DNA of 64,000 bases from Methanobacteriota archaeon. Lineage in GTDB: Archaea; Thermoplasmatota; E2; DHVEG-1. Below are positions 15,796-42,378 of the stretch, piece after piece. Location of the stretch: assembly GCA_963769885.1 (NCBI GenBank), contig CAVYNH010000006.1:384001-448000 (forward strand), given 5' to 3'. Below the pieces are notes generated by a model. It was given only the letters and a program-made list of their open reading frames with translations, did not search any database and was not told where the DNA came from. A program made the translations under genes and the position numbers. Position 1 is the stretch's first letter, and each line of letters opens with the position of its first letter.

Positions 15796-16140
15796 ATGGA
15801 ACAGCAGGGGGACCTGAGCCGGTTTTTCGGTCGATGGCATGCGACGATCGGCGGCGAGCAGGTGTTCCTCGAGTTCTATCCGGATGGCAGGCTTTTTTAC
15901 ACGGGGTTGTGGGGCGAGGATACAAAGGAGTTCATGCATGACATGCGGCATCCCTTGGAGTTCGGCAGACCCCGGCCCGGTCCCGCCTGGGAAGTACGGG
16001 GCGGCCTCCTCGTCATCTTCCTGTTACCACGACAAGAATTCAAATTCGAATACGCGTTTTCCGACCTCGACACGAACCTGGTCCTACGCAGCCTTCAGTC
16101 CAAGGAATCGCTGACGTTCACCAAAAAAACACGGAAGTGA
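15796..16140 (+). CDS. Hypothetical protein
   Basis: ORF from MEQQGDLSRFFGRW with an upstream GGAGG; beta-rich. Confidence 0.55.
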   Translation: MEQQGDLSRFFGRWHATIGGEQVFLEFYPDGRLFYTGLWGEDTKEFMHDMRHPLEFGRPRPGPAWEVRGGLLVIFLLPRQEFKFEYAFSDLDTNLVLRSLQSKESLTFTKKTRK

Positions 16141-16180
16141 AAACACGGTCTTGTCGGTGACCATGAGGATGACTAGGAGA

Positions 16181-16354
16181 TCATAGTGAGTCGAGTGCCA
16201 CGGCTTGTGTGATGTAGTACGTGAGGGCGTCTGCGTCGAGGTCTTGGAGGGTCTTGATTTTCATGTGTTTGGAGAAGGTTCCTTTGCCTTGGAGGAGGCC
16301 GTATTTGTCTTCGAACTTGGCTCCTTGGGCGAAGGCGAAGGTGAAAGAAGCCAC
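16181..16354 (-). pseudogene. C-terminal remnant of a DUF1801/YdhG-like gene
   Basis: Own translation VASFTFAFAQGAKFEDKYGLLQGKGTFSKHMKIKTLQDLDADALTYYITQAVALDSL* resembles the DUF1801 C-terminal half; the N-terminal half is missing. Confidence 0.55.
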
Positions 16355-16390
16355 GGGGTCGCAAGGATCGAGGCCGTTTCGTGGGGACTG

Positions 16391-17461
16391 CTAGCTGACG
16401 TTTTTCACGGTATACGTCCATCCTGCGGTGTAGCTGGCGACGAACTCGCGCATCTCTTGTTCGATGTCATTGATCTGAGCGCGGGTGTACCCGTCGACGT
16501 AGTCGAAGTCGGAGTGCAGGTTCGCCAGGGTCATGCCGTGCTTGTCAGAGCCGATGATGGACCTGGCGTTGTCATAGGTGCCGATGTACCCGCGTTCGTC
16601 TGGGACCGGCAGGTTCCCGAGGTATCTCGTCGTGGTTTCAGTCCAGCCGTACGGATAGAGCGTGCACCAGGCTTTCCCCCACTCTTGATAATCGCATGAG
16701 CTGAAGATGCTCTGGGCAGGTTTCGGGTTCCCGTTGAAATGGATATGGAGCTCGTAGTACCGCACGTACGGGCTGGGGTCCCAGGCGATGTATGCCCCGC
16801 AATAAAAACTGTAGTCGATCTGGTCCGGGTAATTTTCCCATGGCGTAAAATTCGTCTCGTATTCGTAAAGTTGTACCGGGACGTCGAAGGTGATGCTCGC
16901 CGAGGTGTTCTTCTGGCTCTCGTTATGCTCCCTGGTGTGCTCGAGTTTCTCTGAGGGTATATAGCCGATGCCGATGGTGCTGAAATGGGTGATTGGCCCG
17001 GTGACGGTCTGGTGTGCGGTATCGGCAACGCATCCCTGGATTTTCATCCACTCGGTGCCGGAGAGGACGAACAAGTGGAGGATGTCCGCCGGGGTGTCAG
17101 CAGGGATCTTCGAAGGGTTGTACTGCATAGTGAGGCTGACGTTGTCAGCAAACACGGTTCCCTCCGGGCCAAAGGTATAACAGTTTGCTAAGACGATATC
17201 AGAATCATACGGGGGATCTGGGACCGAGTCGAGTGTCACGGCGACGTCCTGCAAGGTAGCGTTCTCGGGAACGGAAAAATGGACTCTTTCGTCTGCGAGA
17301 TCGTATTCTCCCCCTGTTGCAGTGATCGTGCATTCATCATGGATAGGTAGCGCTGAAGGAGTATTGTTCGCGTTGTTCGAGGTCTGGTTCGCACAGCCGC
17401 TGAGTAGCAATACGGCCAGAAGAACGATGCTGAGTAAGGCACCAACGGTTCTTTTCTTCAT
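16391..17461 (-). CDS. Lipoprotein with a ZU5-like domain
   Basis: Lipobox LLSGC; ZU5-like ATGG...FSVPENA...FGPEGTVF...ITHFS; upstream GGAGG. Confidence 0.75.
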   Translation of the reverse strand: MKKRTVGALLSIVLLAVLLLSGCANQTSNNANNTPSALPIHDECTITATGGEYDLADERVHFSVPENATLQDVAVTLDSVPDPPYDSDIVLANCYTFGPEGTVFADNVSLTMQYNPSKIPADTPADILHLFVLSGTEWMKIQGCVADTAHQTVTGPITHFSTIGIGYIPSEKLEHTREHNESQKNTSASITFDVPVQLYEYETNFTPWENYPDQIDYSFYCGAYIAWDPSPYVRYYELHIHFNGNPKPAQSIFSSCDYQEWGKAWCTLYPYGWTETTTRYLGNLPVPDERGYIGTYDNARSIIGSDKHGMTLANLHSDFDYVDGYTRAQINDIEQEMREFVASYTAGWTYTVKNVS

Positions 17462-17616
17462 AAGCTTCGCCTCCTTTCTCTAGGAAGATGAAACGAAATC
17501 ATATTTTTAATCGTATCTAAATAAATGGGATAAAAAAAAGAGCCGATATCGAGCCATCGCAGGATTCATAACAGGATTGATTTAAGTATCGCAAGAGACC
17601 CTCCAGGAGAGGTAAG

Positions 17617-17689
17617 TGGGCCAGGCCGGAATTGAACCGGCGGCCTCCGCGTTGTAAGCGCGACGTCATAACCACTAGACCACTGGCCC
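17617..17689 (-). tRNA. tRNA-Val(TAC), copy 1, fully paired stems
   Basis: GGGCCAGTGGTCTAGTGGTTATGACGTCGCGCTTACAACGCGGAGGCCGCCGGTTCAATTCCGGCCTGGCCCA; no CCA. Confidence 0.92.
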
Positions 17690-17709
17690 ATCTTTTTTTT
17701 TTATGTTGT

Positions 17710-17997
17710 TCATTTTTTTTTTAATAGCGTGTAAATATTTATGGAAAGAAGTGGGACTAAGATGAAAAATAGGTATTCTTCAATCGGCAGTCCGAAAAGT
17801 GTACCAACGATTTCTTTTGAAGAGAAGGTCCATATTCCCATCTGGACTGAGAGGTGATCCCAGATGAACCCGATGAGAAAGAGAATCAGGAGCGATAGTA
17901 GTAAGTTTTTCCATTGTAATTTGGCTCTGTTGAGATATAGAAGAATACTATTTGGAATAAGAACGAATGCGATAAGCAAGATGAGGTATAAGTACAT
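17710..17997 (-). CDS. Lycopene cyclase domain-containing membrane protein
   Basis: WD...GIWTF...G...LPIEEYLFF signature; AT-rich. Confidence 0.8.
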   Translation of the reverse strand: MYLYLILLIAFVLIPNSILLYLNRAKLQWKNLLLSLLILFLIGFIWDHLSVQMGIWTFSSKEIVGTLFGLPIEEYLFFILVPLLSINIYTLLKKK

Positions 17998-18101
17998 ATG
18001 AACGTGATAAAAGTGGCCTATTATTTATGTGTGTGCATTGATTCTTTTCTCTACTGGTGAACGAGTCGACCCTTAACGGCTCTCATGGAATGCTGTGTAC
18101 T

Positions 18102-19196
18102 CTAGGTTCTTTTCACTTTATTGATCTGATGTTCGATGGCCCGATACGCGTTTTGTATAGCTTGCATGGGGCCGTACCCCTCAGAGGTGGTATAGAAGAT
18201 GCCGGGTCTTCCAGAGAGTTTCATTTCGCAGACGACGCGATGGAGTCCTTGTTTTGTTTCCTTGTGTTGTTCAAGGGTGACATGGAGGTAGCCGACTTCG
18301 AGATATTTTTCGTAGTTTTTGAGGAATTCCTCTCTGAGGACGTCTGCAGTTTCTTGTTTGTCGAACCCTTCGACTTTGTCGTTGTTATGGTGGAACTGGA
18401 TCTCGATGGTCTCTTCTCGGTCGAATCCTCCGTAGGGTGCGAGCAGTTCGTGGTGAGTGACGATGCCGTAGAGGTGGTTGTCTTTTCCGATGAGAATCCC
18501 TGGTTGTTCGAACTTGTGCATCTTGGCGTGGGCATCTTTTATAGAGGTTTCCGGCGGTATAAGTAAGGGCTGTTCTTGCATGATGGTTTTCGCCGGGAGG
18601 TTCAGTTTCTGCCGGCGTTCTGATTCAACGTCGGAGCGTCCCTCGACGTTGCTGTGCGCATGTATGACTTTGTTAATGATAGTGTTGATGGTGATCGAGC
18701 CGACAACAACAGAATGATCAACCACGGCAAGATACAAGACGTTATCATGTTGGAACAGGTGAAGGACTTTCCCTATGGTTTCCTCTGGGCTAATGGAGAG
18801 TGGTTCACTGCACATGATCGTGTTTATTGGTTGTGATCCAAGATTTTGTTCTGTGAGTGTTTTCACGATGCTGTCTGCGGTGACCACACCAATGATAGTT
18901 TCGTTTTCGAGGACGGGGAGGGTATAGACGTGGCTTTCGATCATGGCCCGAGCGATTTCTTCTACGGGTGTATCTAAGGAAAGTTTTTGGGTGTGGGAAA
19001 GCAAGGTGTGTAGTTTTGTTTTTAATGTTGTTTTGGGGTCCAACAATGTTCGTTGGAGCAGCATACCCTGGTATTTCTCGTGGTCAGTGATGACAATAGC
19101 GTCGGTGTCGTTGAACAAGTTAATGACTTGGGAGAAGATGTCGTTTGCGTCTCTTTTAATCACGTCTTTATCAAGGATGTCTTGTGCAGTTACCAT
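18102..19196 (-). CDS. Four-CBS-domain protein with a C-terminal HPF/RaiA-like domain (candidate ribosome hibernation factor)
   Basis: CBS repeats (LPVLEN...GVVTADSI; GIVTHHELL). The C-terminal ~100 aa show a beta-alpha-beta-beta-beta-alpha pattern ending GYGPMQAIQNAYRAIEHQINKVK. Confidence 0.75.
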   Translation of the reverse strand: MVTAQDILDKDVIKRDANDIFSQVINLFNDTDAIVITDHEKYQGMLLQRTLLDPKTTLKTKLHTLLSHTQKLSLDTPVEEIARAMIESHVYTLPVLENETIIGVVTADSIVKTLTEQNLGSQPINTIMCSEPLSISPEETIGKVLHLFQHDNVLYLAVVDHSVVVGSITINTIINKVIHAHSNVEGRSDVESERRQKLNLPAKTIMQEQPLLIPPETSIKDAHAKMHKFEQPGILIGKDNHLYGIVTHHELLAPYGGFDREETIEIQFHHNNDKVEGFDKQETADVLREEFLKNYEKYLEVGYLHVTLEQHKETKQGLHRVVCEMKLSGRPGIFYTTSEGYGPMQAIQNAYRAIEHQINKVKRT

Positions 19197-19347
19197 ACGG
19201 ATTTCAACTCCCTCCCTGATGGAGAATGAAATTTATAATGTTTTTCAGAGAAAAAACCCCCGGTTCTACCCAGATACAGGAAGCAAAGCTGACCGCTGAA
19301 TTTCACCGTATGCACACGATACTAAAGGAAGTGGTACAAGGGAACCG

Positions 19348-19746
19348 TCATTTGGAAGGTTCAAAGTAGGCCTTGAGTCGATCCCAGTACCATTCCTGCC
19401 ATCCCTGCTGGATCTCCGGATAGGCCTCGGCCGGGATATCGGTCTGGGTGAACTCAAGGGTCGTCTTGCCGCCTTTCTCTGAAAACAGGAAGGTCACGGT
19501 GGTGTAATGGTCCTTCGGCCAATCCGCTGCCCGCCATGTCTGCACGATTTTCTTATCCGGGATTAATTCGAGATTCTTCCCTGTCGCGTACCCGTCGTAG
19601 GTTTTGAAGCTGCCTCCTACCCTTCGGCTGATTGCCGCCTGCGAGTCCGTGAACGCCGCATGCTTCTTCGAATCCATCAGCGCTTCGTAGAGGTCATGCG
19701 CAGTCGCCTTGAAGACGATGGTCTGATGCAGAGTCTTTGTTTTCAT
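19348..19746 (-). CDS. SRPBCC/AHSA1-like domain protein
   Basis: LYEALMDSKKH, VGGSF, KIVQTWRAADWP, GWQEWYW. Confidence 0.9.
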   Translation of the reverse strand: MKTKTLHQTIVFKATAHDLYEALMDSKKHAAFTDSQAAISRRVGGSFKTYDGYATGKNLELIPDKKIVQTWRAADWPKDHYTTVTFLFSEKGGKTTLEFTQTDIPAEAYPEIQQGWQEWYWDRLKAYFEPSK

Positions 19747-19915
19747 CTGGAAACACCTTACGCAGATGGACAAAACCATCCCCGGATAAGAATGTTACGA
19801 GGCCTTTTTTCCAGGAGAGGATTCAGGGGGTGTGAAGCGACACGGAAGAACAATCGTGGAGGGCGACCCTGTGATTCCTTGAGACGAAGTGTTGTCGCGT
19901 ATTGCGAAAAGAAGA

Positions 19916-19988
19916 TGGGCCGGACCGGAATTGAACCGGCGGCCTCCGCGTTGTAAGCGCGACGTCATAACCACTAGGCCACTGGCCC
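19916..19988 (-). tRNA. tRNA-Val(TAC), copy 2, three substitutions versus copy 1 (possibly chimeric or degenerate)
   Basis: GGGCCAGTGGCCTAG...CCGGTCCGGCCCA; A6-C67 acceptor mismatch, D-stem mismatch, G-U in T-stem. Confidence 0.75.
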
Positions 19989-20055
19989 AGGTTTCAGAGA
20001 ATGATAAACCTGATAGAAACTATGAAATATCCATCGGGATTTAATCTTACTTACG

Positions 20056-20883
20056 TTGCTAAGGCATATTAAAGTCTTCCTCAACTTTATTCGAATTCGA
20101 AGTTTTGCGCCAATACTCGTTCTGGTTTTCACAGGAGCGTTCGCTGGTGCAGGGCTGTCAAGTTTTTCACTCCCCGTGCTGTTCGCCTTAATTTCAATCA
20201 CCTTTGCGTGTGCCGGGGCCATCTCTCTCAATAATTACTATGATCTTGAAGTCGACAGAATAGTGCATTCAGAGCGGCCGTTGCCATCCGGAGAACTCAC
20301 CCCCAACCAAGGATTATTAATCGCATTCTCTTGTTGTGCTATGGCGCTGGTGATTGCCGCCTTCGTTAACCTCCCCTTTTTCATCATGGTGCTTTTTGGG
20401 TATGGAATCTGTATCCTCTATGAAAAAGTCACAAAAGACCAAGGATTCATTGGCAACGTCCTTGTCGCGTTCCTCGCAGGGGCTACGGTATGCGGCGGAT
20501 TTGCCGTCAATAACCCGATCCCCGCCTTGATTATATCGGTCCTTGTCTTTCCCCAAACACTCGGGGGAGAAGTTCTTCGTGATGTCCGAGACGTTGAAGG
20601 AGATCGCGTAAAGCGACGCACCCTCCCCATGCAAATAGGAGAAAAAAATGCCGTGTATATCGGCTGCTATTTCTTGGGCACGACCCTGCTTTTCATCCCC
20701 CTCCCAATCCTATTAGACACGTTCAATTCATGGTATTTACCTGGCATGGTTCTCACGAGCATTCTCTTGATTCTCGGAATTGGATATTCTGTCTCTAATC
20801 CCAAGAATGTGAAAAGAACACTTCAAATCACGAGAGTGGCATTATTACTTACTCTCGCGACATGCATAGTTGCGAGTATATAA
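20056..20883 (+). CDS. UbiA prenyltransferase, digeranylgeranylglyceryl-phosphate synthase-like
   Basis: NNYYDLEVDR...RPLPSG and EVLRDVRDVEGD motifs; multiple TM segments. Confidence 0.85.
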   Translation: MLRHIKVFLNFIRIRSFAPILVLVFTGAFAGAGLSSFSLPVLFALISITFACAGAISLNNYYDLEVDRIVHSERPLPSGELTPNQGLLIAFSCCAMALVIAAFVNLPFFIMVLFGYGICILYEKVTKDQGFIGNVLVAFLAGATVCGGFAVNNPIPALIISVLVFPQTLGGEVLRDVRDVEGDRVKRRTLPMQIGEKNAVYIGCYFLGTTLLFIPLPILLDTFNSWYLPGMVLTSILLILGIGYSVSNPKNVKRTLQITRVALLLTLATCIVASI

Positions 20884-20934
20884 ACATTGATTACAAAATT
20901 CTTAAATTGCACAATGATTTCTTCAAGGGTTCTT

Positions 20935-23406
20935 ATGCCGCAAAAAAAAATTCTAATTCTTCCTCTCCATCAAGTGCGGCGTACAGATGAAGCACTCGTC
21001 GGAAGAAAGGCAGCCCATCTTGGGGAACTGTCATCATTTCTGCCGGTCCCAAACGGCTTCTGCGTGACGATTTCAAGTTTCCAACTCTTCCTCGAATACA
21101 ACAAAATTGACGCGATATCAACACCAGATCGCTTGACAGAGCAGAGGTGCTCTCAAATACAGGCGGGGATAACGAATGGCCAATGGCCTCGAAGCCTAAA
21201 AAAAGAAATCATTGACTCATACCAAAAGCTTCAGGCGTCCATCGTCGCGGTCCGCAGCTCCGGCCTTTCCGAGGATCAGCCCGAGGCGAGCTACGCTGGG
21301 CAACTTGCCACCACACTTGGGATAACAACCGAGGCAGCGCTCCTCGATGCCATTAAAACCTGCTGGGCTTCCCTCTTCGCCCCTCGTGTTCTCACCTATC
21401 GGAACACCATCAATGACCGAGGTTCATTGTTGGGCGCGGTCATTGTACAAGAGATGATCAACGCTGACTTCTCCGGCGTCACCTTCACTCAAGATCCCCT
21501 CGTCAGTCAATACCTTGTGATTGAGACCATTGCCGGATTGGGACAAGGCCTCGTCTCAGGGACAATCACCCCGAGCAGATATATCTTCAAAAGGAAGAAC
21601 CTCCAGCTCCAACAGATCAAACAAAACAACCAGCCACAACAAATCACCATGGGGCCGCACGGTATCAGAACAGTCCCCTTTAATCAATTCCCCACTCTTC
21701 CGAAACCTACGGCAAAGGAAATCGTTCGGAAAAGTATGCAGATTGAACGACACTTCGGAAGCCCCCAGGACATCGAATGGGTGATAGGACAAAATCGTCT
21801 TTTCTTTGTTCAGACACGGCCGATTTCAATTCGGCCACCTGAACAACTCTGGACACGCACATTCGGCGACGAGTACATCTCCGGCGTCATGTCTCCCTTA
21901 TTTTTCTCCTGGTGTGCAGAATTAATGGGCACTAATGTCGTGAAACAGCAACAGGGATATCTTTTCGTCACCACCTCCTTTCTTCAGAATTTCTTCAACA
22001 TCCAGCATTTACCCCGGTTCTGCCGACGCAGCCTCATCCGGAATAATTTTCCCCTGTGCATGCAGGAGGAATTGTCAAATCTCCCGTATGCACCACAGCA
22101 AAAACTCATCCTTGAATTTATGAAACTTCTTACATCTCCCGATGTCCTTTTTTTCACCACACCACAAGCCTATCAGCAATTCGAAAAAGGATATCGTCGA
22201 TACATAGCGGAATTTGACAAGCAGCTTGCTTCTGCGTCAACCCCGCATGACCTTCTAACGCTGTATTCTCAACTCAACACCATGTTTGCGCCGCATCTCA
22301 AGCTGAGTTTTGCAGGAGTTGGACACTGTCTCACTCTTACCTCCTTGTTAGAAGGGCTTCTCAAACGTTGGCTTCACGACTCCTCTTTCCTTTACACGTT
22401 ACTTACAGAAACGTCCAATAGAACCACAGAGACAAACACCACGCTCGCCTCACTAGCGCGACAGGTACAACAGGGCAAGAGCCTTACTGAGCTATTCACC
22501 CATGAAACTGGATACATTCTTCAGCATCTCCCACAGCATCCCTCATTTTCTCAAGACTTCGGCCAGTTCCTAACGGACTATGGACATCGATCATTCACCA
22601 GAGACCCTCTGTACCCTCGATGGAATGAACAACCATCGCTCGTGATTGACAATATCAAAAACATCACGAAGAAATCACGCACCGATCTTGAAGAAAATAC
22701 TCTCTCTTCTCCATCGCAGCAGGAAGCAATACAGCGTCTAAAAAAATTGACGATAGGCAAATATCTTCTGGTAAAAATCCTCCTATCCTACACAGTCAAG
22801 TATATCAATTTTAGAGAAAATGAACGATTCATCCTCGACCTCCATATTTCTCGAATGCGAGCATTATACCTGGCGATGGGACAGATGCTCGTTGAGAGAA
22901 AGAAGTTAAAGAAAAAAGAGGATGTCTTCTATCTCAGCATTGGTACCGTTCGCAGTCTTCTAACTGGAGAAAACCAGGACGTACTCAAACAAATCAGCCA
23001 AACAAAACAAGAGTATAAAAAGAATCTGGAAACGATTCCTCCAAAATTCTTACGCGGCGATTCAGCACTCGATGATTTCCAACCAGAACTAGTTGGCACA
23101 CCCGCTAGTAGCGGAATCATTAAAGGGAAGGCCCGTGTAATTGCAGCCATCGATGAATTCCCCACTCTCCAGGCGAATGAGATTCTGATTACTCGAATTA
23201 TCGATCCTGGAATGACCCCCTATTTTTCTACTATCGCCGGTGTTATAACTGAAATCGGCGGCGTTCTCTGTCACGGTGCAATTCTGGCTCGAGAATATCA
23301 CATTCCTGCAGTCACTGGAGTACACGGAGCCCTCGACAAAATATCCACAGGCGATGAGGTTACAATTGATGGCGATACCGGTAGAATTTACGTCAAGAAA
23401 AAATAA
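20935..23406 (+). CDS. PEP-synthase-like phosphotransferase with rifampicin phosphotransferase architecture (ATP-grasp, central domain, C-terminal His swivel)
   Basis: VGRKAAHL, AVRSS..ED...SYAG, PQDIEW, QTRPI; central YGHR; C-terminal GGVLCHGAILAREYHIPAV. Confidence 0.85.
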   Translation: MPQKKILILPLHQVRRTDEALVGRKAAHLGELSSFLPVPNGFCVTISSFQLFLEYNKIDAISTPDRLTEQRCSQIQAGITNGQWPRSLKKEIIDSYQKLQASIVAVRSSGLSEDQPEASYAGQLATTLGITTEAALLDAIKTCWASLFAPRVLTYRNTINDRGSLLGAVIVQEMINADFSGVTFTQDPLVSQYLVIETIAGLGQGLVSGTITPSRYIFKRKNLQLQQIKQNNQPQQITMGPHGIRTVPFNQFPTLPKPTAKEIVRKSMQIERHFGSPQDIEWVIGQNRLFFVQTRPISIRPPEQLWTRTFGDEYISGVMSPLFFSWCAELMGTNVVKQQQGYLFVTTSFLQNFFNIQHLPRFCRRSLIRNNFPLCMQEELSNLPYAPQQKLILEFMKLLTSPDVLFFTTPQAYQQFEKGYRRYIAEFDKQLASASTPHDLLTLYSQLNTMFAPHLKLSFAGVGHCLTLTSLLEGLLKRWLHDSSFLYTLLTETSNRTTETNTTLASLARQVQQGKSLTELFTHETGYILQHLPQHPSFSQDFGQFLTDYGHRSFTRDPLYPRWNEQPSLVIDNIKNITKKSRTDLEENTLSSPSQQEAIQRLKKLTIGKYLLVKILLSYTVKYINFRENERFILDLHISRMRALYLAMGQMLVERKKLKKKEDVFYLSIGTVRSLLTGENQDVLKQISQTKQEYKKNLETIPPKFLRGDSALDDFQPELVGTPASSGIIKGKARVIAAIDEFPTLQANEILITRIIDPGMTPYFSTIAGVITEIGGVLCHGAILAREYHIPAVTGVHGALDKISTGDEVTIDGDTGRIYVKKK

Positions 23407-23458
23407 CTACACATTTTTTCTTTAAAAAAGGGTATTTCGGGTATTGAAGGATTATTTG

Positions 23459-26400
23459 CTATTGTTCTAGAACCGTATCTTTGGGAGCTTCTGCCTTCCT
23501 TGTGAGTCGTCCCTGGATTCTTCGTGCGAATATTGTCAGCAGGGCGAGGACGGCGGCGGCGATGATGAGGCAGAAGCCAAGGCCGGGTCCCCATGAACAG
23601 GGGACCTTCACCTGCTCGGTGCCGCCGGGGAGGGTGACGTCAAGCGTGCCGCTACCCATGAAGCTGCCGACGCCGATCTGGGTCACTTGGGAAAAGGCGT
23701 AGTAGAAGACGCCGAGGATCATTAAAATCACGATCACCGCCAGAATTGAAAAGATGAGTGTGGTCTTCCTCAGCCGTAGGCTGGCCACCAGGCTAATGAT
23801 GAGGAGGACGCAGGCGATGCCGACGAGCAAAGACAAGAGCCCTAGCACCATGGTGACCTCCGCGGGGACCGCGCTGATTTCGCCGCCGATGGCGTTCGTC
23901 GCCTTCGTCATGGTCACGATCTGCGGGGGGATGACGAGCGTGTTGGTGGTAGTCGAGACCACGCCGGTCTGGCCGTTGAGGACCCACCAGGGGGATGCGA
24001 GGGCGATGATGAGGAGGCCGACGGTGGCGATCTTCAAGGTCGGGTTCGGTCGGCGTTTCCAGAGAAAGAAGACGAGGGCGCCGATGGCGACGGCAATGCC
24101 GAGGGCGGTTAACAGGGCATGCAGGGTCGACCCTTGGGTGGTGACGAGGTCAAGGGATTTCTCCCCTCGGACCTGGACTTGCTGTTGGGCGATGGTTTCC
24201 TGTCCTGATTGGACGAGGAGTTCGTAGTCGCCCGGAGGAATGCTGATGGTGGCGGTGCCGTCCAGGGTGATCTCAGTAGTGTTGGTCTTCTCTTGGCGTT
24301 GGACGCTGACGCTGCCGTGGGAGAGTCGGTTCGCGTAGGAGTCGTAGAGGGTCAGGTTGATGGGGAATTCGGCGGGGAAGACGATGGCAAGTGTGGTGTC
24401 TTTGTCGATGGTGAGATTGCGGTCGACTTTGAAGGTCTTGTAGGAAAGGCTGAGGCGGTAGGGGGCCGGGGGGATGTCGGCGAACTGGTAGGCGCCGGCC
24501 TGGGTCGTGGTCGCATGGATGGCAGTGGGTTGAGTCATGTCGCCGCTGGTGAGGGCAGGGTTGAGGTCGACGGCGGGGGGAAAGCCCCAGGTGTCGGTGG
24601 TGGTGAGGCTGAGGCGGTAGCGTTGGAGGGTGAAGGAGGTTTTCATGGCGATGAAGTGGCGGAGGGTGGTGAGACGGATGGTTTTGGTGCCGATTTGAAA
24701 CCCCCGATAGTTGAGTGCGAGTCGGTACGGTTTGAGAGGAGAGCAGGGGGCGGTGAGGCGGGCGGTGCCGTTTTGGTCGGTGGCGGCCTCGGCGATGGTT
24801 GCGTCGTCGAGCGTAAAGGTACAGTAGGCGTTGGGAACCGGGGTGTTGGTCTGGTCGTTGAGCGTGACGGTGATGGTGCCTTGAGAGCGGCAGCGGATGT
24901 GGATGGTGGTGTCTTGTGTGAGGTTGACGACGGCGACGCCGATGTATTGGTGTTCTTTGGCGTGGCGGGGGTTTTCGCGGTAGATTTTGATGACGTAGGT
25001 GCCGAGGTCGAGGTTGGGGAATCTGATCTTCTTGTGCAAGGAGGAGTTTTTCAAGTCGAAGATGCCGAGAATCATCTGGAGTTTTTGGCGGAGGTTCGTG
25101 CCGGAGAAGTTGAGGGAGATGGCGCCGAGGGAGAGGCGTCCGACGGTGCCTGAGGAACGGAAAGTGGTCTGTTGGTAGAGTTCGGCGTAGATGTAGGAGA
25201 GGTTCTTGCCGAGGGCGGCGGAGAGGAGGGAGCCGAGGGGAACGGAGGGGGCGTGGCGGACGTAGACGGTCAGGTTGTAGCGTGTGGTTTTCTTTTCGGT
25301 TGCGGTTGTGTTTTCCCGGAAGATGGGGACGGTTTGGATCAGGTGCTGATAGAGGGTGGATTCCTCCCCGATGGGTGTCGTGCTGGTTTTTTCCATGGTG
25401 AGGAACTCGGCCTTGTAGTGGTAGGTGTTTCCTTGGTCGATGGTGGTGAGGTGGTTGCCGTTGTGGTAGGCGGTTCTGGAGAGGGCGGTGGTTCCTGAGT
25501 CGGCTTCGAGTCCGGGGAGTTTGACGTTTTGTTTGGCCCAAGATCGGACTTGGAGGCCGTCTTCGGTGCCGTTGGTGATGCCGGTGGTGGCGCTGAAGAT
25601 GATGCTGTGGAGTTTGCCGGTGGCCGGGTCTTGGAGACTAATCCAGGCTTGTGGGCCGAGGTTGATGTCGTCCTGGGGGCTGAGGACGATCTCCGGGGTG
25701 GTGCTCTGGGGGCTGGTGGGGACGGTGTAGTTTTGGATGGTGCCATCGGTGGTGTAGACGGAAAGGCTGGGGAGGATGTCGCCGACGTTCATTTTTTGGA
25801 TAGAGGCGCTACGGGCTTTGATGGAGACGATGCCGGCGTAGAGGCCGTCTTGGATGGAAGGGTCCGGGATGGTGATGGGTTTGAGGATGGTGTGGTGGGC
25901 GTCGACCGTGATTCGTTTTGTGGTGGTGGGGCTGTAGTAGTAGGTGTAGATGTTGTCTGAGGCGATTTCTCCTTGCGGGCTGGTGCAGGTGAGGCGGACG
26001 CGCGCCATGAGGGTGCCGGTGACGAGGATGGTTTTTTTGATGTCGGTGGCGAAGGCGGTGCCGATGTAGTCCGGGGTTCCTGGGACGCCGTAGCGGAGGT
26101 CGAAGTCGGCGAGTTGGTCGAGGTTGTAGGTTTCGACGGCGGTGGAGTTGGGTTTGAATTTGATGGCGGCCAGCGCGATGGGGTTGCCGAGGAGCTGGCC
26201 TTTTTGGACAACGGTGTAGACGACGTAGCCGTCTTGGCGGATGCCGTAGTAGTCGAAGTCGATGGTCTGGCCTGGGATGGGTTCGTAGAAGTAGTGGGTG
26301 TCTTCGACGGTGATGTGGGTGGGGTAGTCGGCGGGGGGTGTTTCGGTGGGGTTGTAGAGGACGTAGAATTTGGTGTTGCTGGTGGTGGGTTCTGGGATGA

Positions 26401-35650: not shown

Positions 35651-36733
35651 ATGTTTTGTATGAGGGAAGCCCGTGGAGTTGTCGTATGTACGATCATAGC
35701 GGCTCTGTTTCTTGTGGGCATCTATCCTGTGGGTGCCCAGAGTCCGCCGATCGCCGATGCTGGTGGCCCCTATGTGGGGTACGAGTGCAATGTCCTGTAT
35801 TTTGATGCCTCGCGGTCGTTCGATCCGGACCATGATGCGTTGCAGTACCGGTGGGATTTCAACGGCGACGGGGTCTTTGATACGTCCTGGTCGTCGGAGC
35901 CGGACGCGTTGTATCAGTGGTTGGATGATTTCACGGGGACGTGCCAGGTCCAGGTTTCGGATGGGCAGTCGATCTCGGATGCGACTGCCGCTGTCCGGAT
36001 CATGAACGTGTATCCTGTCATCGAGTCCATCACGGGGCCGGCGTATCCCGTCGAGGTCGGCTCTGAGGTCTATATCTTCGTCTCATTTTTTGATGGGGAT
36101 GACCGCAGCGGCGTCCTCTCGGCTGATTCGTTCCAGGCGGTGTTCACGTGGAGCGATGGCACGCAGACGACGTATCAGGTGCCCAGCGGGGTCCAGACGG
36201 TCACCGGGACTCATGTCTACAGCGACCCTGGAGTGTACCCGGTCTTCGTCGAGATCACGGATGATGATAACGGCTCGTGTTCCGGTTCGTACTACTACGT
36301 GGTCGTGTTTGAGCCGAATCCGCTGCCGGGCACCGGGTTTGTGACGGGCGGCGGCTGGATCCTCTCACCGCCCGGTGCGTACCGGTTGAACCTGACGTTG
36401 ACCGGCCAGGCGAACTTCGGGTTCAACGCCAAGTATCACAAAGGCAAGCAGATCCCCTCGGGTGAGACCGAGTTCAATTTGCATGTCGCGAGCTTGAACT
36501 TCCATTCCACGGACTACGAGTGGTTGATCGTGACGGGGAACCGGGCCCGGTACAAGGGGAACGGCACCATTAACGGCGACGGCGACTATGCGTTTATGCT
36601 CACCGGAGTCGATAACGGGAACAGGGGGGACCAGTTCCGCATCAAGATCTGGGACAAGGCGATCGGCACCCTAATCTATGACAATAACCAAGACCAGATC
36701 ATCGACGGCGGGCAGATCGTGGTCCACCAGTAA
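35651..36733 (+). CDS. Secreted PKD-domain protein with a C-terminal VTGGGWI-type domain
   Basis: PIADAGGPY, FDASRSFDPD, WDFNGDG; GFVTGGGWI...FRIKIWD. Confidence 0.8.
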   Translation: MFCMREARGVVVCTIIAALFLVGIYPVGAQSPPIADAGGPYVGYECNVLYFDASRSFDPDHDALQYRWDFNGDGVFDTSWSSEPDALYQWLDDFTGTCQVQVSDGQSISDATAAVRIMNVYPVIESITGPAYPVEVGSEVYIFVSFFDGDDRSGVLSADSFQAVFTWSDGTQTTYQVPSGVQTVTGTHVYSDPGVYPVFVEITDDDNGSCSGSYYYVVVFEPNPLPGTGFVTGGGWILSPPGAYRLNLTLTGQANFGFNAKYHKGKQIPSGETEFNLHVASLNFHSTDYEWLIVTGNRARYKGNGTINGDGDYAFMLTGVDNGNRGDQFRIKIWDKAIGTLIYDNNQDQIIDGGQIVVHQ

Positions 36734-36869: not shown

Positions 36870-36940
36870 CAGCCCCGGGCGGATTTGAACCGCCGACGTT
36901 GGCTCCAAAGGCCAAAATGTTGCCACTACACCACGGGGCT
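36870..36940 (-). tRNA. tRNA-Gln(TTG)
   Basis: AGCCCCGTGGTGTAGTGGCAACATTTTGGCCTTTGGAGCCAACGTCGGCGGTTCAAATCCGCCCGGGGCT-G; A1-U72, G73, no CCA. Confidence 0.92.
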
Positions 36941-36971
36941 CCACGCAGCAAGGGAAAACAGCCACAGGATT

Positions 36972-38654
36972 TTAAGGTTTAGCACCCGCCGCGCCCTGGA
37001 TCTTCCCCCAGGTATCCCGCAGCTCCACCGACCGATTCAACACCAAACGCGTCGCAGTCGACCCCGGATCCACGCAGAAATACCCCAGCCGCTCGAACTG
37101 GAACCGGTCCAATGGCTTGCAGTGACGGACCGTCGGCTCGACCTTACAGCCATGCAGGACCTCAAGAGACCGCGGGTTCAGGAACTCCTTGAAATCCGCC
37201 CCCTTCTGATCCAGCGGGTCGCGTACCGTGAACAGCTTGTTGTAGAGCCGGACCTCCGCCTCCACCGCATGCCGGGCAGAGACCCAATGGATCGTGGACT
37301 TCACCTTGCGGCCGTCCGGGGCGTACCCACCCTTGGTCTGCGGGTCGTACGTACAGCGCAACTCCACGACCCGACCATCCTTCTTCACGACATCCTTGCA
37401 GGTGATGAAGTACGCGTACCGCAATCTGACCTCGCGGCCGGGCGCGAGCCGATAGAACTTCGGCGGCGGCTGCTCCATGAAATCCTCCTGCTCGATGAAC
37501 AGGGTCTTGGAGAACGGGATCCGTCGGGACCCCATGGACGGGTCCTCGGGGTTGTTGACCGCCTCGACCTCCTCGGTCGTCTCAGGATAGTTCTCGATCG
37601 TCACCTTCAACGGCCGCAGCACACCCATGTACCGCGGTGCCGCCCTGTTGAGGTCATCGCGGATGCAGTGCTCCAGGAACTCGTAGTCGACGATGCTGTT
37701 GAACTTCGCGACCCCGATGCGCTTGGAGAACAACCGAATCCCCGAGGGCGAGTACCCGCGCCGGCGCATCCCGGAGATCGTCGGCAGCCTCGGGTCGTCC
37801 CACCCGTTGACGTACTTCCCCTCGACGAGCTGCAGCAGCAGCCGCTTGCTCATCACCGTAAAGGTGAGGTTCAGCCGTGCGAACTCGATCTGCTGCGGAT
37901 GATACACCCCGAGCGCGTCCAGGAACCAATCGTACAGCGGCCGATGGTTCTCAAACTCCAGCGTACAGATGGAATGCGTGATCCGCTCAAGGGAATCCTC
38001 CAGCCCATGCGCCCAGTCGTACATCGGGTAGATACACCATTTATCCCCCGTGTTGTGGTGCGTCGCATGCAGGATGCGGTACATCACCGGGTCCCGCAAG
38101 TTCAGGTTCGGATGGTTCATGTCGATCTTCGCACGCAGGACCTTGGAGCCGTCCGGGAACTCCCCCGCCTTCATGCGGCGGAACAAGGAGAGGTTTTCCT
38201 CGATGGAGCGGTCGCGGAAGGGACCATTGATCCCGGGCTTGGTGAGCGTGCCGCGCAGGTCAGCGATCTGGTCTGCGGTCAAGTCGTCGACATAGGCCTT
38301 CCCTTTCTTGATGAGGTCCTCGGCGTACGCGTACATCTGGTCAAAGTAATTCGAGGCGTAGAACAGCCGGTCCTGCCAGTCGAACCCCAGCCATTTCACA
38401 TCGGTGATGATGGACTGGACGTACTCCTCCTCCTCTTTCGCGGGGTTCGTGTCATCGAACCGCAGGTTGCACTTCCCGTGGTACTCCTCGGCGATCCCGA
38501 AGTTCAGGCAGATGGACTTCGCATGGCCGATGTGCAGATAGCCGTTCGGTTCTGGGGGAAACCTGGTGTGTACGCGGCCCTGGTACTTCCCTGACTGAAG
38601 GTCCGCGTCGATGATTTCCCGGATAAAATCCCTGCTCGCTTGCTGTTCGCCCAT
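36972..38654 (-). CDS. glnS: Glutaminyl-tRNA synthetase (bacterial-type)
   Basis: [58 protein letters not shown], beta-barrel anticodon domains ([25 protein letters not shown]). Confidence 0.96.
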
Positions 38655-38695
38655 CTGACACCGACTCCCACATCAGACTCACTAGGAGTAGACAG

Positions 38696-38767
38696 CAGCC
38701 CCGAGCGGATTCGAACCGCTGACAAGAGATCCAGAGTCTCCTATGTTAACCGCTACACCACGGGGCT
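38696..38767 (-). tRNA. tRNA-Gln(CTG)
   Basis: AGCCCCGTGGTGTAGCGGTTAACATAGGAGACTCTGGATCTCTTGTCAGCGGTTCGAATCCGCTCGGGGCT-G; A1-U72, G73, no CCA. Confidence 0.93.
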
Positions 38768-38792
38768 TTCACGACCAATGAAACAAGGTGCA

Positions 38793-38820
38793 GATAAAAA
38801 AACTCACTATATAACCTTTC
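38793..38820 (-). promoter_or_regulatory. BRE/TATA promoter of the tRNA-Gln(CTG)-glnS unit
   Basis: Minus strand GAAAGGTTATATAG followed by TTTTTTATC upstream of the tRNA. Confidence 0.5.
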
Positions 38821-39604: not shown

Positions 39605-40552
39605 TTATGGTCTGGTGAACAGGATTCCACCGTCGGAGGTGGAAGCGGTGAGGGTGTCGGCGTTGGTGACGTAAATGGTTATCCCCCGGCGGTATGCGCT
39701 ACTGACCCAGATGATGTAGTCCGCGGGCTCCGCGGGGTGGGCGAGCACATTGGGGATCAGGATCCCGCTGATGTTTTCCCCTGATTCGAGGAGTATTTCC
39801 ACGTGGTCGCGGGTCTGGGTGATCGTCGCGTTCTCGACTTGGGTGGCGTTGCCGTCCACGTCGTAGAAGGTCGCGGTCCAGTTCCCTGCGATGACCGGGT
39901 AGGTCGCCGCAGGCTCGATCTTGAGGAGGGTGGCGGTCACGTCGTCGAGGTAGTAGGTGCGGTTGGTCTCCCAGGTGCCCCAGACGCCGATGGCGGGGTA
40001 GAGGAGACCGGTGTCGGTGGTGGTGACGAAGTCGTAGGATTTCGTGAGCCAGGTGAGGGTGCCGTTGTCTTGGCCGTTGTCGGTGGTGTCTTGGTAGGTG
40101 AGGTCGGCTTTTGTGGGGGGCTGGGTGGTGACGCCGGTGATAATGGTGAAGGCGTTTACGCCGTAGTCCATGGAGGCGAGCTGGTAGGTGACGGTGATGT
40201 AGTATTGGGTGTTGGGTTGTGCGTGGATGGCTCTCTGGATCCAGATCTTGCCGGCGTCGTTGAGGTTGTTGAGGTAGAGTTCGAGGCTGCGGTTGCCGTC
40301 GTAGGACTGGTTGCTTGTGGGGGTGATCCACCAGGTGATGGGGGGGTCGAGCAGGTCGGTGCCGTTGGCGGTCCAGTTGTCCATGGAGGTTTCGAAGGAG
40401 CTGTAGGTGGTGTTCGCGGCCGGGGGGTTCTGCACGAGGGGCTGGGTGGCTGGTCTGCTGGTGAGGATGAGGGTGACGGCGGCCGAGGTGATGGAGAAGA
40501 TGATGAGGCAGCTGGCGAGGATGGCTTTGGTGACGAGGCGCATGATGACCAA
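39605..40552 (-). CDS. Membrane-anchored hypothetical beta-sandwich protein
   Basis: N-terminal TM segment; SFE...W, DAGKIWI, GVWGTWETNRTYYLD. Confidence 0.7.
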   Translation of the reverse strand: MVIMRLVTKAILASCLIIFSITSAAVTLILTSRPATQPLVQNPPAANTTYSSFETSMDNWTANGTDLLDPPITWWITPTSNQSYDGNRSLELYLNNLNDAGKIWIQRAIHAQPNTQYYITVTYQLASMDYGVNAFTIITGVTTQPPTKADLTYQDTTDNGQDNGTLTWLTKSYDFVTTTDTGLLYPAIGVWGTWETNRTYYLDDVTATLLKIEPAATYPVIAGNWTATFYDVDGNATQVENATITQTRDHVEILLESGENISGILIPNVLAHPAEPADYIIWVSSAYRRGITIYVTNADTLTASTSDGGILFTRP

Positions 40553-40624
40553 GTATTGGGATAGGATCAGGTCTTTTTACCCTTGTGGAAAATGTTTGGG
40601 AATCGCCGAACTACTCGGGGTGGG

Positions 40625-40756
40625 TTAAGGTTGTGTGAAGACAATCGAAGTTTTGTCAGCGAGGAAGCAGCCGTAGAGGGGGCAGGTGGTCTGTTTGGTG
40701 ATGTCGTCGGTCTCGAACTCCCGCCGGCGGCAGAGATGGAGGACGATGGCCTTCAG
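40625..40756 (-). pseudogene. Possible decayed small zinc-ribbon ORF
   Basis: Own translation (CTG)KAIVLHLCRRREFETDDITKQTTCPLYGCFLADKTSIVFTQP*; host-like codons, broken CxxC pairs. Confidence 0.3.
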
Positions 40757-41044
40757 GGGTGAGGTTAATACCGGTTGTTATTTGGGGATAGTGGAAAAAT
40801 GCTCGTAGAATATCGCAGTCACGTTGTTTTCGGTCCTTGTCTTTTTGTACACTAGGGGTTCAGGGGGGTGAGGCGCGGGGAGCCAGTAAAGCCTTTTGAG
40901 ATTAAGATACCCGAATTAAAATTGTTAAAAACATGAATTAAAACCGTGTTAATACTTCTGTTTTGAATTTTTATCTATTACAAACATTTAAATAAATGTG
41001 CAATATATTTAATCATGTCCTGATGTAACAGGGGAGGCAAGAAT

Positions 41045-41500
41045 ATGAGAGAAAGAACTATTTTGAAGAAAGCTGGAGTTTTTTCCGTGATAGCAGTATT
41101 GCTATTGACTGCGACTGGTATGACAGTAAGTGCAAGAAACGATACGACACAATCGGTCACCACTTGTGCACCCATTGGTGACCCAACGAATGTCACCTTC
41201 AACTTCAAAGGCGGTTTCGGTTTCACTATTGTGATAACAAATACTGGTAACGCAACAATGGCCATCAAAAATTGGACCTACAACATAAACATGACTCTGG
41301 GTCTGATTCTCCTTGGCAAAACAAAGAGTGGTACTAACATAACGCTTGCGCCAGGAGCATCAACCAAAATAAAAACGATACCCATCGGCATAGGTGTAGG
41401 AACTGTTGAAATTAACATGTCCGTGCCTGATGAATATGTGTATGAATATTGGGAACGTGTTTATTTTATCGGTCCTTTTGTTCTACCACCCCAATCATAG
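41045..41500 (+). CDS. Secreted protein consisting of a single CARDB-like domain
   Basis: GGAGG RBS, signal peptide; KGGFGFTIVITNTG...W...GLIL...LAPG...IGIG...GPFVL. Confidence 0.75.
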   Translation: MRERTILKKAGVFSVIAVLLLTATGMTVSARNDTTQSVTTCAPIGDPTNVTFNFKGGFGFTIVITNTGNATMAIKNWTYNINMTLGLILLGKTKSGTNITLAPGASTKIKTIPIGIGVGTVEINMSVPDEYVYEYWERVYFIGPFVLPPQS

Positions 41501-41970
41501 ATAGCTAAAATCGACAACATACTTCCATAGAACATCCATTCGCTCTCTTTCTTATTTTTTTGCTTTCGCACAAAAAAACCATGATCAATTTTTGTCTCAA
41601 AACCATGTCAATACTTGCATCAAAAACAATGATAGATTTATATACTACAAGAAAAAACCTAAATTCAATCCCGTTTTCTATTGTTTACGTCAAGTCGACA
41701 TGCGTTTATACCGTGTTAATGCTTCTGATTTCTAAGGATATGTTTTTATTGAATTTTTTGAACTAATGATGCTATACCTAAGTGATAAGAACAAGAATGA
41801 CCTGCGGGTGATGATTACGCTGAAGAAATCAGGAATCATTCTCTCCGAGAAAATACGGCTTCTTTGGCATTTTTTTTCATTCGGAAGTACCGGAGCCTTC
41901 CCTCCTAAGAGAAAACCACCTCGGTGGAAGCGCTTAAAAACCCCCGCGAAGTATCCACCACCGACCCCCC

Positions 41971-42378
41971 ATGCATGAATGGGCCCTCGCCGAATCAATC
42001 CTCGCCGCCGCAGAAACCACCGCGGCCGACCAACACTTCAAGAAAATCAGCAGAATCACTATCAACCTCGGCGAACTCCAAAACATCGACCGCGGCATCC
42101 TACGCTTCGCGCTCAAAGAACTCGCCAAGGAACGCCCCCGTTTCACCGCAACGAGATTCAGCTTCAGAACCGAAGCAACAACCTTCTCCTGCACCGCCTG
42201 CCGCCAGCACTGGAGCCTCGCCGACATCAAACAAAAACTCACCAGCGACGAGGCAGAGGCGATCCACTTCATCCCCGAGGCCGCCCTCAGCTACGTCCGC
42301 TGCCCCCACTGCGGCAGCCCCGACTACCACATCCTCACCGGCCGCGGCGTCACCCTCGCCACCATCACCGGAGACTAA
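41971..42378 (+). CDS. hypA: Hydrogenase nickel incorporation protein HypA
   Basis: MHE start, GELQ, CTAC...HFIPE...CPHCGS, GRGV. Confidence 0.95.
   Translation: MHEWALAESILAAAETTAADQHFKKISRITINLGELQNIDRGILRFALKELAKERPRFTATRFSFRTEATTFSCTACRQHWSLADIKQKLTSDEAEAIHFIPEAALSYVRCPHCGSPDYHILTGRGVTLATITGD

Follow-up and report, generated by a model that had tools for sequence, protein, structure and literature searches.

A bacterial-type glutaminyl-tRNA synthetase gene placed between both tRNA-Gln genes of a Thermoplasmatota archaeon: a probable module for direct glutaminylation

For glutamine, in the textbook example, the path to the tRNA differs between the domains of life. In bacteria such as Escherichia coli (GlnS; structures 1GTR and 1QTQ) and Pseudomonas aeruginosa (5BNZ), glutaminyl-tRNA synthetase (GlnRS) attaches it directly, whereas in the archaeal indirect pathway, as described for Methanothermobacter thermautotrophicus, Gln-tRNA-Gln is made by a glutamyl-tRNA synthetase (GluRS) of the non-discriminating kind together with the amidotransferase GatDE (PMC2943598, PMC2330236, PMC2978374). 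According to reviews published up to 2022, GlnRS is missing from all known archaea for reasons of tRNA identity (PMC9499178, PMC8007984, PMC3439900), the explanation given being a mismatch between archaeal tRNA-Gln, with adenosine at the discriminator position (A73), and the bacterial or eukaryotic enzyme (PMC9499178, PMC8762117); one source writes of 'almost all archaea' and yet also describes the route as 'always' indirect (PMC8762117). Here, a 64,000-nucleotide stretch of a Thermoplasmatota archaeon (the window; bases 384001-448000, in the interior of the 785-kb contig CAVYNH010000006.1 of assembly GCA_963769885.1, which totals 2.09 Mb in 7 contigs with a completeness of 92.4% and a contamination of 0.45%) was analysed, in which a bacterial-type GlnRS gene (glnS) lies between two tRNA-Gln genes. 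The locus is read as a working module for direct glutaminylation, one that is probably the sole source of Gln-tRNA-Gln in the organism, and on the sequence evidence this reading is given a probability of about 0.85.

All parts of the module lie on the minus strand. A BRE/TATA-like promoter element (transcription factor B recognition element and TATA box), GAAAGG TTATATA (GAAAGGTTATATA; 38808..38820), of predicted activity, is located 47 nt upstream of position 1 of tRNA-Gln(CUG), which occupies 38696..38767 (72 nt to the discriminator) and was detected both by ARAGORN, with its end given as 38695, and by Rfam RF00005 with 61.1 bits (gathering score 29). A G+C-rich spacer of 41 nt (38655..38695, counted from the discriminator at 38696) leads to the ATG start codon of glnS (36972..38654; 560 aa, protein P0001), the stop codon of which is separated by a further G+C-rich spacer of exactly 31 nt (36941..36971) from tRNA-Gln(UUG) at 36870..36940 (71 nt to the discriminator; ARAGORN, and RF00005 with 63.2 bits). 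The anatomy proposed in an earlier sequence-only reading of this DNA, namely two tRNAs around a 560-aa open reading frame (ORF) with these two spacers and an upstream promoter element, was reproduced exactly. In an alignment of the loci of family f1, a GAAAAGTTATATA-like BRE/TATA element at about -47 from tRNA(CUG) was seen to be kept in most, and no TATA-like element was found in the 41-nt and 31-nt inner spacers of the locus. This agrees with the operon claimed in the same reading, and co-transcription of tRNA, glnS and tRNA from one archaeal promoter, followed by tRNA processing, is likely. Both of the tRNA-Gln genes found in the whole genome (44 tRNAs by ARAGORN) flank glnS, and because there are only two, their placement within 41 nt of a single gene goes far beyond chance. 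The same tRNA-glnS-tRNA arrangement was found in 10 out of 12 related loci from 8 genera. In four relatives (G037:C128, L183; G026:C80, L169; G052:C4, L173; G049:C1, L174), 1.0-1.8 kb of extra DNA parts glnS from one tRNA, the sandwich having been opened by insertions.

Compared with the bacterial GlnRS/tRNA-Gln system, the enzyme belongs to the same family, has the same domains in near-collinear order and keeps the catalytic, glutamine-binding and anticodon-reading residues, and the module tRNAs resemble the partners of bacterial GlnRS in carrying G73, G2:C71, G10, U35 and G36. The differences lie in the archaeal host and promoter, in the tRNA body (A1:U72, C3:G70, G37 and no encoded CCA) and in the position of glnS between its two presumed tRNA substrates. 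With the archaeal indirect pathway, which is still present together with A73 tRNAs in sister lineages, the module would share its product and does share the A1:U72 scaffold; unlike that pathway, it is found in a genome without gatD or gatE, and its tRNAs are changed at the discriminator and in the D-loop contacted by GatDE. A further parallel is provided by Helicobacter pylori, where Gln-tRNA formation by GluRS2 and GatCAB was likewise re-partitioned through gene duplication and re-tuned identity elements (PMC2777447, PMC3439900), although in that case the duplicated component is an enzyme that still attaches glutamate, whereas the archaeal case involves an imported enzyme and duplicated tRNA genes. 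The Heimdallarchaeia are another archaeal lineage with an annotated GlnRS (bioRxiv 10.1101/2024.07.04.601786), from a different phylum and in a different neighbourhood (cox genes).

In the literature searched, archaeal GlnRS was met in passing mentions only. The premise that archaea lack GlnRS holds as a statement made by reviews, but public Thermoplasmatota metagenome-assembled genomes (MAGs) are automatically annotated with the enzyme and passing mentions exist, in the Heimdallarchaeia preprint cited above and in a paper that asserts GlnRS transfer to Archaea without detail (PMC8879553). No paper on tRNA-side changes, paired tRNA sets or GatDE loss was found in that literature, which did not include the likeliest survey (Di Giulio 2020). 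The enzyme family and its chemistry are already known; the archaeal domain, the tRNA-synthetase-tRNA operon, the duplicated tRNA set and the apparent staged displacement of GatDE are not classical.

The GlnRS enzyme, its ancestry and its distribution

The 560-aa protein passed the GlnRS equivalog model TIGR00440 with 722.8 bits (cut-off 425.8) and remained below the cut-off of the archaeal GluRS model TIGR00463 (355.3 bits against 401.75). Pfam recognised the class Ic catalytic domain (PF00749) and both anticodon-binding barrels (PF03950 and PF20974), and the class I motifs HIGH (residues 41-44) and VMSKR (267-271) are intact. The best matches among solved structures were the GlnRS of P. aeruginosa (5bnz, 721 bits) and of E. 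coli (697 bits); eukaryotic structures matched more weakly (406-469 bits; human 469, yeast 415) and aligned only from their residue ~250, and an archaeal GluRS structure reached 194 bits. No N-terminal appended domain was found, the alignment beginning at residue 3-8 of the bacterial enzymes, and no YqeY domain was found either, the GlnRS/YqeY fusion model NF011291 being matched only at 10-560 of 769 and the protein ending at residue 560. The protein had been described from its sequence as an intact bacterial-type GlnRS with neither eukaryotic extension nor YqeY, and this description was borne out in full.

Alignment to the E. coli chains placed equivalents of the glutamine-pocket residues R30, D66, Y211, C229 and Q255 and of the tRNA-reading residues L136, R341, R402 and R410, and all were kept; the functional residues counted were also conserved across 55 archaeal GlnRS sequences. 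The protein is regarded as a genuine GlnRS of bacterial ancestry and is predicted to attach glutamine. Unlike in E. coli GlnRS, the equivalent of Asp235, which reads the G3:C70 pair, is Asn in this protein, as in 53 of the 55 archaeal sequences. The D235N exchange gives a relaxed-specificity mutant of the E. coli enzyme. Asn at this position was considered as an archaeal adaptation to C3:G70 and was rejected as not diagnostic, being present in 14 of 80 bacterial relatives too; it is retained as a lead only. The GlnRS-YqeY fusion protein of Deinococcus radiodurans (2HZ7; PMC1865053; NF011291) has a homologous GlnRS core (509 bits), but the archaeal protein lacks the YqeY domain, though the NCBI pipeline applies the fusion name to such archaeal proteins. 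P0013, P0015, P0057 and others are named 'glutamine--tRNA ligase/YqeY domain fusion protein' in the same way despite lacking YqeY, a systematic misnomer of 560-aa archaeal proteins, for which NF011291 scores higher than TIGR00440 and so supplies the name.

Among 185,579 species genomes, the 80 best named homologues were all bacterial, from many phyla and with 61-71% identity. Maximum-likelihood trees (quick search, LG+G4) were rooted on the genome's own GluRS, with the bacterial sample consisting of the 80 nearest matches and eukaryotic sequences left out. The 29 full-length GlnRS sequences of the window's family formed one clade inside the bacterial sequences with a support of 100 in the Shimodaira-Hasegawa-like approximate likelihood-ratio test (SH-aLRT), next to a weakly resolved sister group made up of a Chloroflexi MAG (89) and then of a group of Planctomycetota, Sumerlaeota and Hydrogenedentota. 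When 24 GlnRS sequences from eleven other families of the phylum were included, all 53 archaeal sequences formed one clade (SH-aLRT 99), with the window's family as a subclade. Archaeal GlnRS sequences are 70-88% identical to each other, and close homologues carry the NCBI labels Candidatus Thermoplasmatota or Thermoplasmata archaea. The horizontal origin proposed in the sequence-only reading is upheld by this nesting among bacterial GlnRS and by the bacterial nearest named homologues. The acquisition is not private to this organism; it appears ancient, and no fewer than 12 families of the phylum share it. The trees are most simply read as one ancient transfer, from a bacterium to the Thermoplasmatota.

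In a sample of 61 genomes of the order, GlnRS exceeded the cut-off in 32, all from the window's family (31 of 50 genomes besides the source genome, in at least 15 genera), and in none of the 10 genomes of two sister families. Across a sample of 401 genomes of the phylum, it was found in 73, from at least 12 families, and not in the sampled genomes of four large families (0/48, 0/36, 0/58 and 0/19); GatE (E<=1e-90) was found in 287. These counts show a gene that is no artefact and is not rare, and that frequently coexists with GatDE.

Given that the nearest named homologues are bacterial, it could be supposed that a bacterial fragment had been mis-joined during assembly or binning, or that the whole module had recently been imported from a bacterium together with its tRNAs, and mislabelling in public data does occur, as with a partial relative of GatE (type 2, see below) on a 2.5-kb contig labelled bacterial. 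Such an explanation is nevertheless regarded as exceedingly improbable. The locus lies deep within a 785-kb contig that also carries a 16S rRNA gene (1510 bits on the archaeal small-subunit model), and it has an archaeal BRE/TATA promoter and archaeal-type tRNAs, in disagreement with a chimeric or bacterial contig. The G+C content of glnS (0.608; 0.854 at third codon positions) is within the range of the host, for which 284 long ORFs of the contig gave 0.574+-0.058 and 0.685+-0.145, so that the archaeal context and host-like composition previously noted were confirmed. In addition, the acceptor stem of the flanking tRNAs is that of native tRNA-Gln in GlnRS-less relatives and not that of bacteria, the same module occurs in dozens of independently assembled genomes, single-contig ones included, and archaeal GlnRS forms a clade of its own with the mutual identities given above.

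Two sets of tRNA-Gln and the fate of GatDE

An alignment of 94 tRNA-Gln genes from the order sample, with positions numbered from the T-loop, separated two sets. Within the order, tRNA-Gln genes linked to glnS all have G73 and a length of 71-72 nt, whereas those of GlnRS-less genomes all have A73 and a length of 73 nt. Only two systematic differences were observed in the alignment: the discriminator, which is G in 59/59 of the first set and A in 35/35 of the second, and the D-loop, where a deletion of 1-2 nt just after G18-G19, with the adjoining column, was present in 58/59 and 0/35, respectively. Relative to the native type, the D-loop of tRNA-Gln(CUG) is one nt shorter and that of tRNA-Gln(UUG) two nt shorter. 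The acceptor stem AGCCCCG/CGGGGCU (A1:U72) is identical in both sets, and in the source genome tRNA-Gln(CUG) has A1:U72, G2:C71, C3:G70, G10 and G73 without an encoded CCA, and tRNA-Gln(UUG) has A1:U72 and G73. Bacterial tRNA-Gln genes located near bacterial glnS (7/80 loci) have UGGGGG.../U1:A72 stems instead. As the acceptor stem of the flanking tRNAs matches that of native archaeal tRNA-Gln and not the bacterial one, these tRNAs are archaeal in origin, and their co-transfer from the donor was ruled out on the same ground. They are a diverged duplicate set of the native archaeal tRNA-Gln. The sequence-only reading had taken them for the host's complete tRNA-Gln set; complete they are, as the only two in the genome, but rather than being an untouched host set they are G73, short-D-loop duplicates that displaced the original A73 set.

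E. coli GlnRS uses the discriminator G73 as a determinant, whereas archaeal tRNA-Gln has A73 (PMC9499178, PMC13433404). Of the E. coli-type identity set (G73, U1-A72, G2-C71, G3-C70, G10, U35 and G36; PMC13433404, PMC9976931), the flanking tRNAs possess G73, G2:C71, G10, U35 and G36, while the weak 1:72 pair is inverted to A1:U72 and G3:C70 is replaced by C3:G70. GatDE, for its part, recognises A1-U72 and D-loop positions 19-20 (PMC2330236). Outside the order, too, glnS is commonly preceded directly by a tRNA-Gln(CUG) gene; its discriminator is variable, being G in families f7, f12, f41 and f42, and some A73 forms already have a short D-loop. A universal requirement of the GlnRS clade for G73 was therefore ruled out by the A73 found on glnS-linked tRNAs in several families, and the association of G73 with GlnRS is perfect only within the order examined. 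A tRNA-Glu gene (UUC or CUC) is often found immediately downstream of the module (L088, L096 and the f23 loci L195, L197, L200, L201, L203, L206 and L207), so that glnS tends to be surrounded by a cluster of tRNA genes for Glu and Gln. Loose linkage of glnS and tRNA-Gln exists in bacteria too: tRNA-Gln(CUG) lies within the ~3 kb flank on either side of glnS in 7/80 bacterial loci (L015, L019, L022, L051, L059, L068 and L073), several of them from Anaerolineae. In the first four, three of which are Anaerolineae, the two genes are on opposite strands.

Two types of GatE were distinguished in the order, type 1 with ~630-713 bits and unlinked to gatD, and type 2 with ~533-566 bits and divergently adjoining a second gatD, the two GatD classes being 45% identical to each other. 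The tRNA type followed the pathway genes. In all 8 genomes with GlnRS and type-1 GatE, to which one genome whose GlnRS is a fragment at the end of a contig can be added, G73 and A73 tRNA-Gln were found together; the 6 with GlnRS and type-2 GatE only, and the 17 with GlnRS but no GatE, the source genome and its genus-mate included, had G73 only; and the 23 without GlnRS had A73 only (13 with data). Because G73 and A73 copies coexist within 8 genomes, this contrast does not merely reflect shared ancestry. Two exceptions (G040 and G059) have a G73 tRNA with no matched glnS, adjacent or elsewhere; G059 has a scaffold gap nearby and no GluRS match, and its case is likely, if unproven, to be due to genome incompleteness.

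Traces of intermediate states were also seen. In three genomes with GlnRS and GatE, an A73 tRNA(UUG)-type gene lies between glnS and the G73 tRNA(UUG), as would be expected for a tandem-duplication intermediate, and in the third of these (G020) the interposed A73 copy has a disrupted anticodon loop. The single-contig relative G049, with GlnRS and no GatE, contains a 74-codon C-terminal gatD remnant (G049:C1:2113069-2113290, L215) that is 54% identical to intact GatD and has the look of a vestige left by the lost pathway. Genes resembling tRNA-Gln, with the A73 stem and a long D-loop but abnormal anticodon loops, were found at G002:C43:4128 (L155), G029:C110:30845 (L158), G044:C75:1662 (L144), G044:C43:20404 (L142) and G020:C16:8720 (L190), the abnormalities being a disrupted stem, a loop of 9 nt, a call of a 4-nt anticodon or the anticodon CUU. 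Native tRNA-Gln genes in decay are one possible explanation, and tRNAs that have taken on a new role are another. Together with the gatD remnant, these genes provide evidence suggesting that loss of GatDE is ongoing. Examples of the divergent GatDE class were noted at G020:C3:2692-6125 (L216), G026:C55, G002:C13 and G014:C1, and in G026 a G73 tRNA-Gln(CUG) lies ~50 nt from the divergent gatE. This class might be a back-up amidotransferase adapted to G73 tRNAs. A bacterial origin for it was unsupported, its nearest relatives also being labelled Thermoplasmata (judged by label).

In the source genome, the gatD model gave only a 37-bit asparaginase-like match, and the gatE, gatB and gatA models gave nothing, although all three matched in appropriate control genomes; a tblastn search of the whole genome with the relatives' GatD (both classes) and GatE likewise returned nothing at E<=0.01, and no A73 tRNA-Gln was among the 44 tRNAs found by ARAGORN in this 92.4% complete assembly. 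An AsnRS (424.9 bits against 342.6), a GluRS of ordinary archaeal type (487.3 bits against 401.75) and glutamine synthetase (GlnA; 494 bits combined) are present. The genome therefore looks amidotransferase-free, with both amide amino acids predicted to be charged directly. An AsnB-type asparagine synthetase was not found (best match 31 bits), AsnA- or AsnRS-like synthetases not having been searched for; such a synthetase, or uptake, are candidate sources of free asparagine. The suggestion that the module had replaced the GatDE pathway gained support from the search of this genome and its sister MAGs, as gatD, gatE, gatA and gatB were likewise not found in the genus-mate and in 15 further GlnRS-positive relatives.

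It was also possible that GatDE and an A73 tRNA-Gln sit in the unassembled ~8% of the genome and that GlnRS supplements the indirect pathway, as it does in about half of the GlnRS-positive relatives (GatE is retained in 15/32 GlnRS-positive genomes of the order, and the completeness of 92.4% leaves room for missing genes). This would require several loci, given that canonical gatD and gatE are unlinked in relatives, and at least one A73 tRNA gene to be missing together. The genus-mate (91% complete) is also without them, A73 tRNA-Gln occurs in none of the 17 GlnRS-positive genomes lacking GatE, and the single-contig relatives G049 and G400 have GlnRS and no GatE, with only the gatD remnant in the former. 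An unassembled indirect pathway is for these reasons considered very unlikely.

A different possibility is that, beside a genuine GlnRS, the resident non-discriminating GluRS continues to glutamylate the G73 tRNAs, with an unrecognised amidotransferase or editing factor keeping fidelity, so that the module is only part of the system. No known sequence signature separates discriminating from non-discriminating archaeal GluRS, the GluRS here is of the ordinary archaeal type, and the persistence of divergent GatDE in six G73-only relatives is a hint that an encounter of G73 tRNAs with an amidotransferase can still take place. The source genome, however, has neither GatDE class nor GatCAB, and the tRNA-Glu genes beside the module in relatives have A73, so that G73 would set tRNA-Gln apart at a commonly read position. 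Continued glutamylation of this kind is held to be very unlikely. Under the preferred reading of a functional and probably exclusive direct route, the resident GluRS would no longer mischarge tRNA-Gln.

Genomic surroundings of the module

The neighbours of the module are common to the genus-mate only, the relatives having been compared within a flank of at most ~1.5 kb on each side, and no integrase or transposase was seen adjoining it. Neither a fixed ancestral chromosomal site nor mobility of the module was shown, as the flanks are shared only with the genus-mate and an integrase or transposase was not seen. The downstream neighbour (35651-36733, plus strand) encodes a protein of 360 aa in which PKD domains and, at the C-terminus, a post-COAP-1 domain were recognised. 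It is probably located at the surface and is unrelated to translation, and its adjacency is not kept in other genera. Elsewhere in the window, two tRNA-Val(UAC) genes (17616-17689 and 19914-19989) lie 2.2 kb apart within an 8-kb stretch of low G+C content (16000-24000; 0.48-0.50 against 0.57 for the window), which may represent an element that integrated and duplicated its tRNA target. A second patch of low G+C content (0.468) is located at 40001-42000, just upstream of the module's neighbours and beside ORFs without a family match.

Proposed replacement of the indirect pathway

In the proposed mechanism, the archaeal promoter would drive one tRNA(CUG)-glnS-tRNA(UUG) transcript, from which RNase P and RNase Z would free both tRNAs and the glnS mRNA, and the bacterial-derived GlnRS would charge both tRNAs with free glutamine supplied by glutamine synthetase. 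Historically, glnS would have entered the Thermoplasmatota once, long ago, from a bacterium. Within the order, native archaeal tRNA-Gln genes would have been duplicated, and the duplicate pair would have become linked to it and been altered at two sites, with A73 replaced at the discriminator by G73, which is the determinant for bacterial GlnRS, and with 1-2 nt removed from the D-loop in the part read by GatDE, after which lineages may have shed the original A73 tRNAs along with canonical GatDE, the source genome representing the end state. A stronger proposal is that the two tRNA-Gln sets form a natural orthogonal pair, the G73 short-D-loop tRNAs serving GlnRS only and being rejected by GluRS and canonical GatDE, and the A73 tRNAs serving GluRS and GatDE only; this is put forward tentatively and given somewhat less than even weight.

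Several points weigh against a functional and exclusive direct route with this history. The flanking tRNAs keep C3:G70 and A1:U72 and not the G3:C70 and U1:A72 of E. coli, and glnS-linked tRNA-Gln genes keep A73 in families f23, f39, f48 and f4. The genomes in which tRNA type and pathway genes covary are related and hence non-independent samples, and the trees were quick LG+G4 searches with one long GluRS root branch and bacteria limited to the 80 nearest matches. With the genome 92% complete, the absence of GatDE is not absolute, and GluRS would have to avoid mischarging tRNA-Gln without GatDE; the assignment of function is drawn from sequence.

The identity barrier was reportedly proposed in 2000 as the reason for archaea lacking GlnRS. 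In the large archaeal group described here, GlnRS is present and inherited; in the source genome its tRNA partners differ from the native ones at the position proposed as the barrier and also in the D-loop read by GatDE, and every intermediate stage is preserved in relatives, so that the old question of why archaea lack GlnRS becomes testable. If the two sets do form such an orthogonal pair, tRNA duplication and retuning, and not adaptation of the enzyme, would have let an archaeon cross the identity barrier, and the succession from both tRNA sets, through G73 tRNAs with a second GatDE class, to GlnRS only would represent the stepwise replacement of an ancient translation pathway. The two tRNA sets would also offer natural material for the engineering of orthogonal synthetase-tRNA pairs, and the inference of pathways from annotation in archaeal MAGs should not presume the indirect route to Gln-tRNA-Gln.

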